Assembly (NCBI GenBank): GCA_011915565.1
Contig: GCA_011915565.1_3920.1
Direction: 5' to 3' (one strand)
DNA: 64,000 bases
Source of the DNA: a phage
In this document: one piece after another, positions 2,456 through 9,540 of the stretch
How the letters are laid out: each line of letters opens with the position of its first letter
How positions within the stretch are numbered: the stretch's first letter is position 1
Position numbers and translations under genes: made by a program
The notes under the pieces: model-generated
What the model saw: only the letters and a program-made list of their open reading frames with translations
The model's database searches: none
Told to the model about the DNA's origin: nothing

Positions 2456-3924
2456 TGGCAGGATTAACTACAACAGGATTACAAACTCTAAGATATCAGG
2501 AAATTTTTGATAATATCAAATCAAGACTTCTTAGAGATATTTCACCAAACCTTGACGTTTCTGAAGATAGCCAATTAGGTCTCTTCCTAGCTTCAATTGC
2601 AAGGTCTTTAGCAGATACACATGAGATTCTATCAGAAATCTATGACGGCGGGACAATTGACAAGGCTGAAGGATTTAACCTTGATGATATTACAGCTTTG
2701 AATGCTGTATACAGATATGTTGCTCAGGCAACAAGAGGTCAAGTTGAGTTTACTGGAACTACTGGTGCTACCATTCCTTCAACAACAAGATTAAGAAGTA
2801 CTGCCGGAAACATCTTTTATCCAGTTAATAACATTACCCTTACTCCATCATATTGTGTTGAAGCTACACTTGAAGTTAACTCTTTACGAACTGATGCAGA
2901 TTATGTTATTATTATTGATAACGTCATTTTCTCATATAAACCAACCTCATTAGACACAATCACTACGCTGCTAACAAAATTAGCAGAAGCTATTAATGGT
3001 GGTATTGTAGCAAAAGCAGAAGTCATTAATGATGGAGCCGCATTAAGAGTCTATAAAGACGAAGGTGATATCATTGCAAGAACAAACCCTATGGTTGTCA
3101 CTGCAACAACGTTTCTGACCTTTACAAAGATTACAACTATTTCAGATGTAGTAGCTGAAGAGGTTGGTGCTACCCCTGCTTTGGCTGGTACGCTTATTGA
3201 GATTGAGACAACTGTTGATGGTCTTGACAGTATTTATAACAGGTATGACTTAACAACTGGTAGAAACGAAGAAACTGACACAGAACTTAGACAGAGATAT
3301 TTAGAATCCTTAGCAGTTACTGGTGTAGGGACTTTGGATGCAATTGTGGCTGCTGTTAAAAGAGTTCAAGGGGTCTCAGATGCTTCAGGTGTTGAAAATG
3401 ATACTGAAGAGACGAACTCAGAAGGTCTTCCACCAAAATCTTTTAAGATTGTCGTAGTTGGTGGTCAAAACGATAATGTTGCTCAAGCAATCTGGGATAC
3501 AAAACCTGCTGGTATTAGGGCTTATGGCTCGATTTTTGGCACAGCCTATGATTTAGGTGGTTTAGCACATAATATTTATTTTAGCAGACCAACACCAAAA
3601 TACGCATTTGTTAAGGTGTCTTACTCATTATATGACGAAGAAAGTTTGACAATCCCTGAAGAGGATATCAGAGACAGCATTGTACAAGGTATTAATGCTT
3701 ATGGAAGAACTCTTAAGGTTGGTAATGATGTTATCCCTAACAGAATCTATGGATATATCTATGACGTGATTAAAGGTATTGAGATTAATGAGGTTAAAGT
3801 AGCCTTATCAAACAGCCAATCAGTCCCACCTAGTGACGGGCAGTATACTACAGCAAGAATTACTGTTGACGGTGACCAATATACTGTTTGGGAAAGCAGC
3901 CAGTATACCATCACTAAGGAGTAA
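2455..3924 (+). CDS. baseplate J-like protein
   Basis: 489 aa ORF following the W-like gene in conserved baseplate order; overlapping start/stop. Confidence 0.5.
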
Positions 3925-3926
3925 TA

Positions 3927-4781
3927 ATGTTTGAAAAGATTGATAGTGTTTATTACAAAACACTTGATGAAAGGACTGTAACACAGTTTAAAGATAAATT
4001 TATCTATACAAGTATCTTGAAAGCAATCACTGATGAATTACAAACTCTAGAGGATGTTTGCTGGCAGATGCACACAGAGAGAAATATCAGGACGTCAGTA
4101 GGCCAACAACTTGATAACATTGGCTCACTGATTAAAGTTCCTAGACCTTTAGGTGCAGATGATGAAACATATAGGGCTATGCTTTATATTCAAATCTTCC
4201 TAAGACGCTCTGACACCACCCCAACATTCTTGCAAAAAGCAATTATGACGCTATACGGTGCAACTTTCTCTCAGATTTTTGAGCATATTACTCCTAAGAC
4301 TGGTGGTATCGTTATCCGTATCAACACTAGAAAAAGCGTTCTAGATGCTGCATATACACTATCAAAGATTTCTGCAACAACTACTGGCTCCGCTGTTATC
4401 TTAAGAGATGTTACTTTAAATGGGACTGCTTGGACACCTGTAGAGGTTGCTGATTCATCACTTGCTATTGTTGATGATAAAGAGAACTGGTTTGTAACTG
4501 ATGCTAACAGGGGTCTTGTCACAAATAACACTGGTGGCTCTCTGGAGTCCAACTTAGTAGGTAGTCTTGTAGATGCTGGTGTTATTGATGGTTACTTTAG
4601 GGTTGACAGAACAGCAAACTCACAGAGTGATGATTATATGACTGTAGATAGGTCCAATAATAGTGGCTATTTCATCGTTGGTAAAGAAGCTATTGCAGGT
4701 GGTGCATATGGAATCATGGCTGAGGTTGCACAAATTGTCAAAGGCAGAAAAGATAAATCACAACAAGAAGGAAATTCTTAA
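3927..4781 (+). CDS. baseplate/tail-fibre attachment protein (gpI-like position)
   Basis: 284 aa ORF between J-like gene and tail fibres; position-based. Confidence 0.35.
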
Positions 4782-5083
4782 TGGCAGTTTTAAATTGGTC
4801 TACAAATGAAGTAGATACTGATGGTAACCAGTTAAAAGTTTTACCACCACCGGAAGTTCAAGAGACAGGTCTTTTAAAGGGTGAACCTATGGGTAGACAG
4901 TGGTTCAACTATATTATCAACTACCTGCTTAATAAAGTAAACGGCACTGTTGGTGAAGTTCGCTCATATGCAACTGAGCAACCAGATTTAGTGGCTAATG
5001 GCTGGAATCTGATTAAATCTGAGACAGGGACTGCATCAACAAGTACAGGAAACCTTTACACATATGAATATGTAGGAGCTTAA
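4781..5083 (+). CDS. hypothetical structural protein
   Basis: 100 aa ORF coupled inside the fibre operon. Confidence 0.4.
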
Positions 5084-5085
5084 TA

Positions 5086-6261
5086 ATGGCAGTAGGTGAA
5101 ATTCAAATTAGTGCCTTGCCACAAGCGGACTTACCAGTTGATTTAAGTGATATCTTCCACCTTAAGCAAGGTGTTGAGGATAAAAGATGTACGCTTGAAC
5201 AGTTGTTAGCACCTCACGCATCTCTGAGGAATAATCCTCATGGTGTAACCAAATCGCAAGTGGGTCTTGATAATGTTATTAACTCTCTCCAATTAGTTGC
5301 AGCCAATAACTTGTCAGACATTGTGAATGTTGCTGAGGCAAGAGCAAATCTACAAATTATGTCGTCAGAAGAAGTGAATAACTCAATTCAGCAACATATT
5401 GACGACAAAAGTAACCCACACAATACAACGAAAGCACAGGTAGGTTTAAGTAATGTTCAGAACTGGACAACATCTAATCTGTACAATGAAGATGCTGATA
5501 AGTACGCCACCGCGAGAGCAGTGAATAATCTATACAAAGCTATTCAAGCATCATATCCAGTAGGGACTATTCATCTATCTGTTAACTCTGCCAACCCATC
5601 CACTTACTTGCTTTGTGGAGGTACTTGGGAGTTAGTTTCTAAAGGTAGAGCACTAGTTGGTTACGATACAGATTCTAGACCTGTTGGTTCAATGTTTGGT
5701 TCTCAGACTGTAGCATTAACGAATAATAATTTACCAGCACACACACACTCTATCTATCTAACAGGTGGTGGTCATACACACTCTGCAAGTGTATCTATCT
5801 CTAGTTTTGATTATGGTTCAAAGAGTACATCAACTTTTGACTACGGTACAAAAACGACTAATAGTGCTGGTGCTCATACTCACACGTTTAGTGGTACAAC
5901 AAGTAATGCTGGTAACCACAACCACAGAGTACCTATGAGGGGTAATGATATGGGCGGTACAAATGCTATTACTGCATCTGCTGATGCTGGTGTTGGTAAT
6001 GCTATGTATACTGATTTAGCTGGTGCTCACACCCATAGCTTCTCAGGCACAACTGCATCATCTGGTGCTCATAGCCATACTCTTGCAATTGGTGCTCACA
6101 GCCACACTGTTAATATTGGTTCACACAGTCATACGGGCACTGTTACTGTTTCTAGCTCTGAGCATACACACTCAGGGACATCTGGTTCTGTTGGTGGTGG
6201 TCAAGCTTTCAGTGTTGAGCAACCATCTTTTGTAGTATATGTGTGGCAGAGAACAGCTTAA
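5086..6261 (+). CDS. tail fibre protein with C-terminal HxH repeat tip
   Basis: C-terminus rich in HTHS/HSHT/HNH triplets (AHTHSFSGT, GAHSHTV), as in T4 gp37/gp12-type fibre tips; ends QAFSVEQ...VWQRTA. Confidence 0.7.
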   Translation: MAVGEIQISALPQADLPVDLSDIFHLKQGVEDKRCTLEQLLAPHASLRNNPHGVTKSQVGLDNVINSLQLVAANNLSDIVNVAEARANLQIMSSEEVNNSIQQHIDDKSNPHNTTKAQVGLSNVQNWTTSNLYNEDADKYATARAVNNLYKAIQASYPVGTIHLSVNSANPSTYLLCGGTWELVSKGRALVGYDTDSRPVGSMFGSQTVALTNNNLPAHTHSIYLTGGGHTHSASVSISSFDYGSKSTSTFDYGTKTTNSAGAHTHTFSGTTSNAGNHNHRVPMRGNDMGGTNAITASADAGVGNAMYTDLAGAHTHSFSGTTASSGAHSHTLAIGAHSHTVNIGSHSHTGTVTVSSSEHTHSGTSGSVGGGQAFSVEQPSFVVYVWQRTA

Positions 6262-6307
6262 TTTCTTTACAGGGGCTTTGTAGCCCCTTTTAAGAGGAAA
6301 ATTTATA

Positions 6308-8857
6308 ATGGCAGATTACAAATTGAGTCAATTAAACTCAATCGACACAATTCGTTCAGAAGACCTATTGCACATCAGAGTTAAGAAAAGACCTGAAATG
6401 TTGGGTGACGAAGACCGTAGAATGACCTATCAAGACTTCTTAGCTTCTTTCAAACTAGAAAGGTTTGTTCAGATTGCTGGTAGCGCTATGACGGGTGATT
6501 TAGGTATTGTCAAGTTACTTTACGGTGGCAAGGCTGTATTTGACCCTACAGGCTCTTCTGAGATTACTATTGGGGATATTTTAAAGACTTTTAAAATTAA
6601 CTCAAATGGTCTTAAACTCACTATTGCAGATGCTTCAAGGTCAGCAACTGTTTATCATACTTTGAATAAACCAAGCCCTAATGAGCTTGGCATGAGAACT
6701 AATGAAGAGAATGATGCAAGATATGCAAGGCTCGCTGTTACAAATACATTCTCTGGAACTCAGAACATTCAAGGTGATGCTAACTTACTTCGCCTTAGAA
6801 ACCAAAATGCAAATAATGCACAATATATTGAAGGTGTAAACCTAGATGGTTCGGCTAGATGGTGGGTTGGTATTGGTAGTAATGGTTCTGATGGAGTGAT
6901 GCTGTATAATAACAAATATAATTCAGCCTTGACTATTGCAAGCAACATCTCTGTGAATAAGTCTTTAGCAATCACTGGTCAAGTTCAACCTTCAGATTTC
7001 TCTAACTTAGATGCCAGATACTTCACTCAGACAGTTGCTAATCAGAGATTTGCACAGTTAGCTGGTAATAACACCTTTACAGGTGCTAACACATTTAGGA
7101 CTATGAGTGTTATCTCAAATGCTGCTGCTATCACACTGCAATGTGCATCAGCAAACGAATCCCTGTATCTACTTGCAAAAGATTATGAAGGTGGAAACTT
7201 ATGGTATCTTGGTAAAGGTAGTTCAGGTGCTGGTGTAACTATCTACAACTATACCACTAACACCTCTTTAGTCTTAGATGCTGCTGGAGTATCAGCAAAT
7301 AAAAATGTCAGAATCACTGGTCAAGTTCAACCTTCAGATTGGGCTAACATTGACTCTAGATATATTCCGGCAGCAACATTAAGTACGATTGCAAGAACTA
7401 ATGCAAGGAATACTTTTAATGGTGTACAGACAGTTGTTACGGATAATGAAGGTCTGATTGTTAAAAACTCTACTCAGAATAGACCATTATATATTCGTGG
7501 TGTGGACACTACTAATGTATCAAGATGGTGGATTGGTGTTGGTGGTGCTGATACGAATGATGTTACCCTAAATAACAGTTATTCTGGAACCCAATTGGTT
7601 CTCGGGAATACAACATCATACATTAACAAAACATTGACTATTGCTGGACAAGTTCAACCTTCAGATTTCTCTAACTTAGATGCTAGATACTTTACGCAAA
7701 GTGCTAGTGATAGTAGATACCTAAGAATCAGAAGCACTAGCTTCAATGTGGGAAACACTGATAAGTGGGCTAAAATTGCCACTGTTGTGATGCCACAATC
7801 AGCATCCACTGCTGTTATTGAGGTATTTGGTGGGTCAGGTTTTAATATTAATACACCAAACCAAGCAGGTAAATGTGAAATTGTTCTGCGAACTTCAAAT
7901 AACAATCCAAAGGGCTTAAATGTTGTTGCTTGGAGAACATCAGAGAACACCATTGTCAGGGATATTGGTTATGTGAATACTTCTGGAGACACCTATGATA
8001 TTTACTATCTTGCTGGTACGTATCAAAACAGCACAACGACAAGGGTTCAGTCTTCTAGTAATGCAAGTGTACAGTTGTTTGAAGTCCCACAGACATTTGA
8101 TGATGCTCCACAAGGTATTGTGAAGGGTACAATTGCAAAATACTACACAAGTTTGCAAAAACCAACCCCTTCAGATATTGGTGCATACACTAAAGCAGAA
8201 ACTGACCAGAAGATTGCAGAAGCAATTAGTGACTCTACAGACCTGAATAAAATCTATCCAGTAGGCATTGTGACGTGGTTTAACAGTAATGTCAACCCTA
8301 ACACAGCACTTCCTGGGTTAACTTGGACGTACCTGAACAATGGTGTTGGTAGAACTATTAGAATTGCAGCAGCAAACGGTTCAGATGTTGCTACAACTGG
8401 TGGTTCAGACTCTGTAACGTTGTCTGTTGGTAACTTGCCTTCACACACACACAGCTTCTCTGCTACTACTTCATCATTTGACTATGGTACTAAGACTTCT
8501 AGCACAACTGGTAACCATAACCACAACAGAGGTACTATGGAGATTACTGGTACAGTAGGTTACTTTAGAAGTGACTCTAGCAGCTTCTACACAGCAAGTG
8601 GTGCATTCACACTTGGTAGCTCAACTGCTTCTAAAGGCTTCACTGGTTCTAACTTTACTTATGGTGTCCCTGCTAACTTTAATGCGTCAAGAACTTGGTC
8701 TGGCGTTACTAACACAACTGGTAACCATAACCATACTGTAGGTATTGGTGCTCACAACCACACCGTTAGCGGTAACACAGGTGGTACTGGTTCTGGTTCA
8801 GCATTTAGTGTTACTAACCAGTTCTATAAGTTAATGGCTTGGGTAAGAACTGCTTAA
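6308..8857 (+). CDS. long tail fibre protein with three tandem internal domains and HxH tip
   Basis: 849 aa; three ~110 aa repeats each ending ITGQVQPSD(F/W)(S/A)N(L/I)D(A/S)RY; C-terminal NLPSHTHSFS...GNHNHTVGIGAHNHTV...AWVRTA shared with the upstream fibre gene. Confidence 0.7.
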   Translation: MADYKLSQLNSIDTIRSEDLLHIRVKKRPEMLGDEDRRMTYQDFLASFKLERFVQIAGSAMTGDLGIVKLLYGGKAVFDPTGSSEITIGDILKTFKINSNGLKLTIADASRSATVYHTLNKPSPNELGMRTNEENDARYARLAVTNTFSGTQNIQGDANLLRLRNQNANNAQYIEGVNLDGSARWWVGIGSNGSDGVMLYNNKYNSALTIASNISVNKSLAITGQVQPSDFSNLDARYFTQTVANQRFAQLAGNNTFTGANTFRTMSVISNAAAITLQCASANESLYLLAKDYEGGNLWYLGKGSSGAGVTIYNYTTNTSLVLDAAGVSANKNVRITGQVQPSDWANIDSRYIPAATLSTIARTNARNTFNGVQTVVTDNEGLIVKNSTQNRPLYIRGVDTTNVSRWWIGVGGADTNDVTLNNSYSGTQLVLGNTTSYINKTLTIAGQVQPSDFSNLDARYFTQSASDSRYLRIRSTSFNVGNTDKWAKIATVVMPQSASTAVIEVFGGSGFNINTPNQAGKCEIVLRTSNNNPKGLNVVAWRTSENTIVRDIGYVNTSGDTYDIYYLAGTYQNSTTTRVQSSSNASVQLFEVPQTFDDAPQGIVKGTIAKYYTSLQKPTPSDIGAYTKAETDQKIAEAISDSTDLNKIYPVGIVTWFNSNVNPNTALPGLTWTYLNNGVGRTIRIAAANGSDVATTGGSDSVTLSVGNLPSHTHSFSATTSSFDYGTKTSSTTGNHNHNRGTMEITGTVGYFRSDSSSFYTASGAFTLGSSTASKGFTGSNFTYGVPANFNASRTWSGVTNTTGNHNHTVGIGAHNHTVSGNTGGTGSGSAFSVTNQFYKLMAWVRTA
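6820..7700 (+). repeat. three tandem ~330 bp intragenic repeats in the long fibre gene
   Basis: Near-identical DNA blocks (a)tcactggtcaagttcaaccttcagat at about 6961, 7312 and 7632. Confidence 0.7.
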
Positions 8858-8936
8858 TCCCTTGTTGACTGATTGTTAAGATGGTGTTAATATTCTTTAT
8901 AGGTATTCTCACCATCTTGGCTGATGAGGTGATTAA

Positions 8937-9134
8937 ATGCCTACAATCCTAGCAATTCTTCTAAAAAATCTAGGTAGCTTCTTCTGGAAACTCATTTTAT
9001 CCCTTCTAAGTGAATACATGATTGAGAAAGTGTTCTTTAAGCTTGCAAGATATCTTGCGAGTAAGACAGACACACCTATTGATGATGAGTTCGTAGATAA
9101 CTTAGAAAAAGCTTTTAAGGGGGAGAATAAATGA
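8937..9134 (+). CDS. small membrane protein
   Basis: 65 aa with a hydrophobic N-terminal segment; downstream of fibre genes. Confidence 0.4.
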   Translation: MPTILAILLKNLGSFFWKLILSLLSEYMIEKVFFKLARYLASKTDTPIDDEFVDNLEKAFKGENK

Positions 9135-9502
9135 AGTGGCTAGAGGATGCTTTTAAAAATAATATTGGTGCAATTGTAGTTGGTATTTTTAGTGTTATTG
9201 GGATGTATACCACGATGCAAGTTTCAAGTGGTAAGCAAGAAGTGTCTGTCACAACGAAGTTACAGCAGCTAGATAATTATTCCAAAAGTAACTATTCAGC
9301 TATTCGTGATTTACAGTCTGACATGAGACTTATTCAGTTAGGGATGGAGAATCAGAAAGTTCAGTTAGAGAATGTTAAGGGTGAGAATGCAAAACTTACC
9401 AAAACTCTTGATAAGTTCTCTGACAGTGTAAATAATCTGGCTCAATCAGTATCAGCCCTCCAAGCTATTACTGAGAAGAACACAAAAAGTACTGAAAAAT
9501 AA
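9131..9502 (+). CDS. membrane-anchored coiled-coil protein
   Basis: N-terminal TM-like segment (IGAIVVGIFSVIGMY) then heptad-rich region; ATGA overlap with upstream ORF. Confidence 0.45.
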   Translation: MKWLEDAFKNNIGAIVVGIFSVIGMYTTMQVSSGKQEVSVTTKLQQLDNYSKSNYSAIRDLQSDMRLIQLGMENQKVQLENVKGENAKLTKTLDKFSDSVNNLAQSVSALQAITEKNTKSTEK

Positions 9503-9508
9503 AGTTTA

Positions 9509-9540
9509 AGGCTCCCGTAAAAAGGAGCCTTTTTTGTTTT
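9509..9540 (+). terminator. intrinsic terminator closing the structural operon
   Basis: aaggctcc-cgtaaaaa-ggagcctt hairpin followed by tttttgtttt. Confidence 0.7.

Follow-up and report, generated by a model that had tools for sequence, protein, structure and literature searches.

The subject of this analysis is a pair of adjoining tail fibre genes on the plus strand of the phage contig GCA_011915565.1_3920.1 (NCBI GenBank assembly GCA_011915565.1); the whole stretch of 64,000 nucleotides (nt) that was analyzed is referred to as the window. Both open reading frames (ORFs), 5086-6261 (391 amino acids, aa) and 6308-8857 (849 aa), end in a module that is, judged by sequence, homologous to the receptor-binding collar-needle-head tip of T4 gp37. 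The explanation we favour, with a probability of roughly 0.88, is that they encode two homotrimeric baseplate fibres with metal-stapled gp37-type tips, whose heads would bind structures related to lipopolysaccharide (LPS), and that three spacer domains and a knob add to the length of the long fibre. It is built on features observed directly, i.e. the homology, the domain limits, the variability pattern, the recombination breakpoints and the distribution of copy numbers. The core of this finding is already known: gp37 homology was reported for the phages Felix O1 (2010) and VpaE1 (2015), and the architecture for Sf14 and Bas63 (2025). Minor additions made here are a correction of the DNA identity of the repeats, a map of the breakpoints and the range of two to five shaft units in metagenomic relatives.

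Tip modules of the two fibres

The two genes are divided into the following features (HxH, His-x-His):

5086-6261, plus strand: short tail fibre gene with a putative N-terminal baseplate-binding region, an NPHxxTKxQVG shaft and a gp37-type tip (ORF; phrog_2097)
5518-5736, plus strand: collar domain of the short fibre, about aa 145-217 (Pfam: PF21939, Gp10_C)
5737-5928, plus strand: outbound needle strand of the short fibre, HxH at aa 219, 230, 264 and 278 (HxH positions; 2XGF alignment)
5929-6021, plus strand: presumed head (distal tip) of the short fibre, about aa 282-312, its most variable segment (drop in conservation)
6022-6258, plus strand: returning needle strand of the short fibre, HxH at aa 315, 329, 338, 347 and 360, with the conserved C-terminus ...VYVWQRTA (2XGF; hhalign)
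6308-8857, plus strand: long tail fibre gene (ORF; phrog_4277 tail fiber, full length)
6308-6724, plus strand: N-terminal region of the long fibre, aa 1-139, with a presumed baseplate-binding role (conservation; role after the cryo-electron microscopy (cryo-EM) of Bas63, PMC12609058)
6725-7057, 7058-7390 and 7391-7726, plus strand: three tandem shaft domains R1, R2 and R3 of about 110 aa each (Pfam: PF20744, three times)
7692-8155, plus strand: mid-fibre knob cassette, about aa 462-616, an autonomous beta-sandwich (breakpoints; AlphaFold2 (AF2); Foldseek)
8156-8527, plus strand: KPTPSDIGAYTKAETD joint, collar and outbound needle strand of the long fibre, HxH at aa 713 and 737, near-invariant (conservation; hhalign)
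8528-8722, plus strand: presumed head of the long fibre, about aa 741-805, variable (conservation; Felix O1 breakpoints)
8723-8854, plus strand: returning needle strand of the long fibre, HxH at aa 807 and 816, with the C-terminus ...FYKLMAWVRTA (homologues; 2XGF)

An earlier note on this DNA, made from its letters alone, had proposed that the two proteins share a His-rich tip. Its motifs NLP(A/S)HTHS, FDYG(S/T)K, GNHNH and IGAH(S/N)HTV are all present; the C-terminus is W(Q/V)RTA in both fibres, so that '(W/A)' at its first position was a misreading. On formal alignment the similarity is significant. Aa 136-342 of the short fibre match aa 623-820 of the long fibre with 30% identity over 221 columns (BLASTP, expect value E = 2e-15), and a profile-profile comparison with hhalign, based on 54 short-fibre and 56 long-fibre homologues, joins aa 152-391 to aa 645-849, i.e. 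through the last residue (probability 99.9%, E = 5e-31), with the C-terminal block of the short fibre facing ...LMAWVRTA. No third copy of the module was found in the whole window by tblastn with both proteins. The N-terminal regions of the two fibres have no significant similarity in hhalign; the 'shared baseplate-binding domain' reported from the structure of Bas63 is not visible at the sequence level here.

The likeness to T4 that the note had drawn from the HxH repeats was borne out as well. The last 191 residues of the short fibre contain nine HxH, compared with 1.58 in shuffled sequences (none of 20,000 reaches nine), and the last 149 residues of the long fibre contain four, compared with 0.38 (1 in 20,000). 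Aa 145-362 of the short fibre align with the solved T4 gp37 tip (PDB: 2XGF) at E = 9.8e-27, and seven of its nine HxH are aligned to HxH of T4; those at 230, 264 and 278 match residue for residue, while the one at 219 faces a non-HxH stretch. Aa 707-828 of the long fibre align with the same structure at E = 9.4e-7, its returning needle strand and C-terminus lying opposite 'GDHSHSVGIGAHTHTV' of T4 gp37. The collar of the short fibre corresponds both to the collar part of 2XGF and to the C-terminal domain of T4 gp10 (PDB: 2FKK/5HX2), and Gp10_C is found on its aa 154-276 with 66.7 bits (cut-off 27). In agreement with these results are the match of the short fibre to the tail fiber family phrog_2097 (E = 1.6e-137), the annotation of its counterpart, gene 82 of phage wV8, as 'putative tail fiber protein GP37', and the 98% aa identity of the long fibre to the 'tail fiber protein' of phage vB_EcoM_H12.

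The conservation profiles divide both tips in the same manner. For the short fibre, 67 homologues agree with the query at 0.6-0.85 along most of the protein, but conservation falls to 0.14-0.32 at aa 286-315, with the minimum of 0.14 at aa 286-300, between the HxH at 278 and 315; the short fibre of Felix O1 differs in this head and carries an indel there. In the long fibre, aa 1-140 are conserved at 0.89-1.00 (93 and 26 homologues of the two knob classes described below) and aa 621-720, which comprise the joint, the collar and the start of the outbound needle, at 0.95-1.00 in both classes; values are 0.82 for aa 721-740 with the HxH at 737 (93 homologues; 0.82-0.95 across both knob classes), 0.53-0.56 for the head at aa 741-800 (93 homologues) and 0.99-1.00 for the last 29 residues (aa 821-849). 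AWVRTA is the C-terminus of all 117 long-fibre homologues that are 785 aa or longer. In each fibre, the outbound and the returning HxH listed above flank the peak of variability, and most of their histidines are invariant or nearly so across the homologues. The number of HxH in relatives is four (87 proteins) or six (30 proteins) in long fibres and ranges from three to 11, with a mode of nine, in short fibres. Variability concentrated in each presumed head fits the pattern expected of a host-contacting surface and thus fits two receptor-binding proteins, as the note had suggested; both fibres are seen on the virions of relatives by cryo-EM.

At aa 289 of the short fibre (5950-5952), the window reads GNDMGG, and the four closest relatives fetched (wV8, SP22, Tf and the contig of ERZ1505402 described below) read GNDRGG. 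This is a single Arg-to-Met change, and it lies in the most variable, presumably host-contacting segment of the protein.

According to the model favoured here, the short and the long fibre would each attach to the baseplate through an N-terminal domain of its own. If Bas63 is a guide, the long one would sit on a trimeric platform protein, whose gene lies directly upstream, and the short one on a wedge protein. In the tip, the collar would come first, and the chain would run out along a thin needle to a small head and then back. Each HxH together with its two symmetry mates would surround one metal ion, on the three-fold axis, with six histidines, which predicts nine metal sites for the short and four for the long fibre. 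The distal head is expected to contact the cell surface, i.e. LPS for this group of phages. Three diverged shaft domains and a beta-sandwich knob would set the length of the long fibre, whose evolution would proceed through the exchange of segments bounded by the repeat-end joint, the KPTPSDIGAYTKAETD joint and the His boxes, and not through slippage of near-identical repeats.

Several points weigh against this explanation. The trimeric state, the metal binding, the attachment sites and the receptor contact are carried over from relatives and from T4. The intertwined tip does not fold in the AF2 monomer model, where its predicted local distance difference test (pLDDT) is below 50; the needle geometry is therefore taken from homology alone. 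For the long fibre, Gp10_C scores 24.7 bits, just below its cut-off, and the match to 2XGF is modest; PF21939 is precomputed on many close long-fibre homologues. The head of the long fibre, with about 65 aa, is larger than that of T4 and has no solved counterpart. No homologue of the T4 chaperones gp38 or gp57A adjoins the fibre genes (the whole window was not scanned for them), so that folding may differ from that of T4. Furthermore, the Bas63 paper counts five beta-helix domains in the long fibre, where the sequence methods used here yield three repeats and a knob.

Two alternatives concern the tips. It could be that only the long fibre is a receptor-binding protein and that the 391-aa protein is a structural or trigger element like T4 gp10 or gp12, without a specificity of its own. 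Its best Pfam match is the baseplate domain Gp10_C, it is highly conserved among wV8-type coliphages, its counterpart gp76 reached only 9% coverage in the Felix O1 proteome (PMC3185647), and that of Bas63 is stowed against the sheath (PMC12609058). Yet the match to the gp37 tip is far stronger than the match to gp10 (E = 3e-6), and the head is the least conserved part of the protein and differs between coliphage and Salmonella phage versions; we regard a purely structural role as unlikely. An origin of the shared tip by recent duplication, or by ongoing gene conversion between both genes in one genome, was rejected and appears far less probable still. The genes adjoin on the same strand, and short stretches of DNA coding for His boxes are 74-83% identical between them, but the tip proteins are only about 30% identical, the short tip is nearer to T4 gp37 (97 bits) than to its neighbour (65 bits), the numbers of HxH differ (nine versus four), and the two tips of VpaE1 are 54% and 37% identical to T4 gp37 (PMC4690856). 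These identities, scores and HxH numbers point to an old divergence and separate exchange with T-even-type fibres, and not to concerted evolution.

Shaft units and their copy number

The note had also described three repeats of about 110 aa in the 849-aa protein, and these were recovered: the Pfam family PF20744 (gp37_trimer) matches the long fibre in three stretches (E = 2e-77, 255.8 bits, cut-off 21.7). The units span aa 140-250, 251-361 and 362-473, with a spacing of 342 and 327 nt, and each ends in the conserved joint ITGQVQPSD(F/W)xN(L/I)DxRY. What did not hold is the claim that their DNA is near-identical. Between units, identity is 32-43% in aa and 50-57% in codon-aligned nt; the longest exact runs measure 19-35 nt, all of them at the joint coding for ITGQVQPSD. 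Tandem Repeats Finder reported no array of about 330 bp between 3000 and 12000, only a 27-nt micro-repeat at the His boxes. Because of the 50-57% nt identity, the shaft units are best read, from their sequences, as old, diverged copies of a domain.

When the whole long fibre is modelled as a monomer with AF2 (mean pLDDT 55), the N-terminus and the tip are unusable and the repeats and the knob usable; the shaft units fold as separate beta-rich domains with block-mean pLDDT values of about 59-90. In Foldseek and phmmer searches, the repeat domains weakly resemble T7 gp17 (371-553) and T4 gp34. For the C-terminal region of T7 gp17 (PDB: 4A0T/4A0U) and the T4 gp34 rods (PDB: 4UXG/5NXH), E is 0.01 by sequence and 2e-4 to 4e-3 by fold, a resemblance only and not membership; the Sf14 and Bas63 papers make the same comparison (PMC11821841, PMC12609058).

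Copy numbers were counted with a hidden Markov model built from the three units of the window in the 120 best homologues. Three shaft units are present in 119 of them, and their lengths range from 788 to 856 aa with no steps of 110 aa; not counted in this range are two incomplete sequences, of 751 and 773 aa, and the exception, a two-unit variant of 740 aa (P0068). The latter is encoded on a 23-kb metagenomic contig (ERZ1505402 NODE_674; L001) with a coverage of 6.7x. Up to 7098 its DNA agrees with the window at 95% identity, and again from 7644 on at 94%, and the junction falls in the conserved joint; this two-unit allele could be real or a misassembly.

A search of 1.84 billion representative proteins with the unit profile returned 204 matches. 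Among the top matches are a protein of 1015 aa with five units (P0241) and one of 901 aa, as called, with four (P0242); others among the top matches have three. The five-unit gene lies on a 77-kb contig (L006) and the four-unit gene, which is seen on three contigs, on an 87-kb scaffold (L007), and both proteins are flanked by the full gene order of the Ounavirinae. Within the five-unit gene, units 3 and 5 are 61% identical in aa and 68.5% in nt. Its unit 4 (L006 7475-7706) is 82% identical in nt to unit 1 of the window (6789-7020), while the surrounding DNA either cannot be aligned or, as in the adjoining baseplate genes, is about 72% identical. This suggests that a shaft unit was relocated to a new place in another phage.

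The call of the four-unit long fibre (L007 3848-4001) starts at an internal Met, MLGDEDR, which corresponds to aa 31 here, and a 150-nt gap follows the short fibre gene. The true start probably lies about 30 codons upstream, which would give a protein of about 930 aa.

The note had taken the repeats as a substrate for recombination; on this view, unequal crossing-over in phage populations would alter the copy number and hence the length of the fibre. In its favour, all units end in the same joint with its 19-35 nt of exact identity, the two-unit contig has its junction exactly there, syntenic relatives carry four and five units, and the similarity of units 3 and 5 in the five-unit protein suggests a past duplication. 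The low DNA identity of the units and the missing array argue against it, as do the constant number of three in nearly all close homologues and the low coverage of the two-unit contig, where a misassembly is possible. The authors of the Bas63 study likewise report no variable repeat number across the recognised Felixounavirus species (PMC12609058). Neither near-identical copies nor copy-number polymorphism among close relatives, by which a length-variation (contingency) locus would be recognised, was found. With a fixed copy number and a low unit identity, copy-number change is therefore likely to be rare and ancient, not a running switch, and we consider recombination within present populations quite improbable. 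The part of the claim that stands is that of a changing copy number, since two, four and five copies occur in syntenic contigs; a range of two to five is seen only once more distant relatives are included. Judging from these comparisons, the copy number has changed in the course of evolution and units have been relocated, whereas the number is fixed within the wV8 group.

Replaceable segments of the long fibre

Alignments of the fibre locus with related phages break off at a few recurrent points. SP22 and Tf match the window with 89-96% DNA identity as far as 7691/7692 and with 89-91% from 8156/8159 on; nothing between can be aligned. In this interval lies the knob, and 26 of 119 homologues possess an unrelated knob (Pfam: PF12604) instead of the window type. 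Felix O1 aligns at 4781-7098, 7308-7699, 8159-8512 and 8720-9498, and the gaps correspond to the body of repeat 2, the knob and the head. The breakpoints 8512 and 8720 coincide with the His boxes flanking the head; megablast matches to Salmonella phages stop at query position 3427, i.e. at 8512 of the window. The same joints serve as breakpoints repeatedly, in Felix O1, SP22, Tf and one metagenomic contig.

By this evidence, the swapped parts are the body of repeat 2, the knob and the head, each bounded by conserved joints. The tip is not swapped as a whole, because the collar and the proximal needle of the long fibre are almost invariant. The swappable host-range cassette proposed in the earlier note thus does not extend to whole tips; the segments replaced are the head, the mid-fibre knob and the repeat body.

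Modelled alone, the knob (aa 470-616) is predicted as a beta-sandwich with a pLDDT of 85 (AF2). Foldseek finds similarity to the N-terminal domain of WceF (PDB: 6TGF; E = 3e-6, template modelling score 0.70) and to N-terminal domains of Acinetobacter phage tailspikes, i.e. only to N-terminal beta-sandwich domains of tailspike-like proteins and to no convincing lectin or enzyme. The knob is 31-48% identical to segments of T-even gp37.

A wider, tentative idea is that the long fibre is a modular rod, whose shaft units, knob and head are exchanged independently between positions and phages by means of short joints; we think it possible but rather doubtful. The hints are the 82% identity between unit 1 and the unit 4 of a relative with flanks of about 72%, the recurrent breakpoints, and the substitutions at aa 497 and 534 reported in the long fibre of a Salmonella Felixounavirus under laboratory selection (PMC6669636), which fall in the knob region by number only. 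If it were true, the reach of the fibre (two to five units) and the knob as a second host-interaction surface would evolve independently of the tip.

Salmonella typing and the biocontrol of E. coli O157 make use of Felix O1-type phages, and it matters for host-range engineering which fibre segments are fixed and which are replaceable. A practical by-product of the analysis is the joint-by-joint map of the repeat-2 body, the knob (7692-8155) and the head (8513-8719), and natural relatives tolerate two to five shaft units.

Known systems and neighbouring genes

The fibre pair has been described in several relatives. In the 2010 genome paper of Felix O1, both gp76 and gp77 are C-terminally similar to T4 gp37 (PMC3185647), and both genes are annotated as 'putative tail fiber protein GP37' in the Felix O1 record. 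For VpaE1, the same was reported in 2015 for gp74 and gp75, with a conserved N-terminus and a variable middle and C-terminus, and both fibres were found on the virion by mass spectrometry (PMC4690856). The cryo-EM study of Bas63 (Escherichia phage JohannRWettstein; Sci Adv 2025) places a short fibre, gp26, and a long one, gp27, on the virion, and likens their tips, with a common collar, HxH needle and head, explicitly to 2XGF (PMC12609058). Bas63 belongs to the same genus and shares the gene order wedge 1, long tail fibre (LTF) platform, short fibre, long fibre; by its published description, it also shares private N-terminal baseplate-binding domains, gp37-like tips and extra repeated beta domains in the long fibre. 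It has seven HxH in the short and six in the long fibre, compared with nine and four in the window. Its fibres are not among the PDB chains matched by phmmer with the fibres of the window, and a PhageMaP preprint on Bas63 gene essentiality contains nothing usable on the two fibres.

Shigella phage Sf14 (cryo-EM, Commun Biol 2025) likewise has two fibres in the same order, gp52 (391 aa, exactly as the short fibre here) and gp53 (792 aa), both on the virion and retracted along the tail; the description names domains like the T7 gp17 pyramid, one like the C-terminal domain of T4 gp10 and a distal tip like that of gp37, and neither a separate chaperone or adhesin nor homologues of the Mu-type chaperone were identified (PMC11821841). 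Unlike the window, Sf14 is placed with the Moogleviruses, a group of the Ounavirinae distinct from Felixounavirus (PMC11821841). Its long fibre is 57 aa shorter and in length near the 788-790-aa class with the alternative knob.

In T4 gp37, as Bartual et al. (2010, PNAS) are cited in the Bas63 paper, the chain follows the needle outwards, forms the head and comes back, with iron bound by the HxH along the three-fold axis (PMC12609058). The tips of the window share the collar, the outbound and returning HxH strands with the head between, and a similar hydrophobic C-terminal end. They differ in that the T4 tip has seven HxH layers and is carried on a kinked 145-nm fibre of four proteins that needs gp38 and gp57A, whereas the tips here have nine and four and occur twice per genome on straight fibres of a single protein. 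T4 binds OmpC or LPS, while the Felix O1-type group is reported to use LPS only. For T-even phages, recombination of gp37/gp38 between conserved motifs (His boxes) was reportedly described by Tetart, Desplats and Krisch in 1998 (J Mol Biol). In the window, too, short conserved stretches of DNA form joints at the edges of the variable segments, and the His boxes on either side of the head are two of them; unlike in the T-even phages, the principle extends to the joints of the shaft repeats and to the mid-fibre knob, and in a different phage subfamily.

Two further features belong to the fibre locus:

4781-5083, plus strand: 100-aa long-fibre platform protein, by which the long fibre is putatively attached to the baseplate wedge (phmmer against PDB)
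6272-6291, plus strand: GC hairpin GGGGC-TTTGTA-GCCCC followed by TTTT, between the fibre genes and just 5' of the ribosome-binding site of the long fibre (sequence)

The DNA of the 3.8-kb fibre region is 94-97% identical to the Escherichia phages vB_EcoM_H12, KEP3, ZX4221 and wV8, and it matches 235 phage records, almost all of them Felix O1-like (megablast); the wV8 locus aligns with 4781-9502 of the window at 93.9%. The product of 4781-5083 matches chain S of the Bas63 structure 9NDY, 'LTF platform protein (gp025)', over 100 of 100 residues (phmmer, E = 4e-58), and a 284-aa ORF further upstream matches wedge protein 1 of the same structure (E = 3.5e-157). Because of this nt identity and the upstream genes matching Bas63 baseplate chains, we assign the locus to the fibre module of a wV8-group Felixounavirus, i.e. 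a Felix O1-like myophage with E. coli O157:H7 and its relatives as hosts. In wV8, SP22, Tf and Felix O1 the genes follow one another as they do here (wedge, platform, short fibre, long fibre, two small ORFs and, on the opposite strand, thyA and folA), and by near-identity and synteny the two genes are the short and long fibre pair of Felixounavirus/Ounavirinae. The G+C content of the window is 38.6%. ARAGORN detects no tRNA gene in the whole 64 kb, while Felix O1 is reported with 22 tRNAs; the tRNA cluster must therefore lie in the part of the genome outside the window.

The 38-nt intergenic stretch 6263-6300, which contains the GC hairpin, folds at -16.3 kcal/mol. In two relatives the stem is retained and the loop altered, and the wV8 record has a 'Rho-independent terminator' annotated at this place. 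A scan for consensus terminators missed the hairpin, whose T-run is just four T. It is a probable weak terminator or attenuator and could set the ratio of short to long fibre expression.

Directly 3' of the long fibre gene lie two small overlapping ORFs, 8937-9134 (65 aa) and 9131-9502 (123 aa). Each starts with a hydrophobic stretch, and their matches are confined to PHROGs of unknown function; ORFs of 63-65 aa at the position of the former in relatives match Pfam PF26925 (Phage_PM2_Gpl). The protein table of Sf14 lists gp55, two genes past the longer fibre, as 'holin or lysozyme', which may or may not be the counterpart of either ORF (PMC11821841). A role in lysis or fibre assembly could be considered for both. 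A symmetrical hairpin at 9508-9531, with T-runs on both strands, separates the last of the late genes on the plus strand from thyA on the minus strand and is likely a bidirectional terminator.

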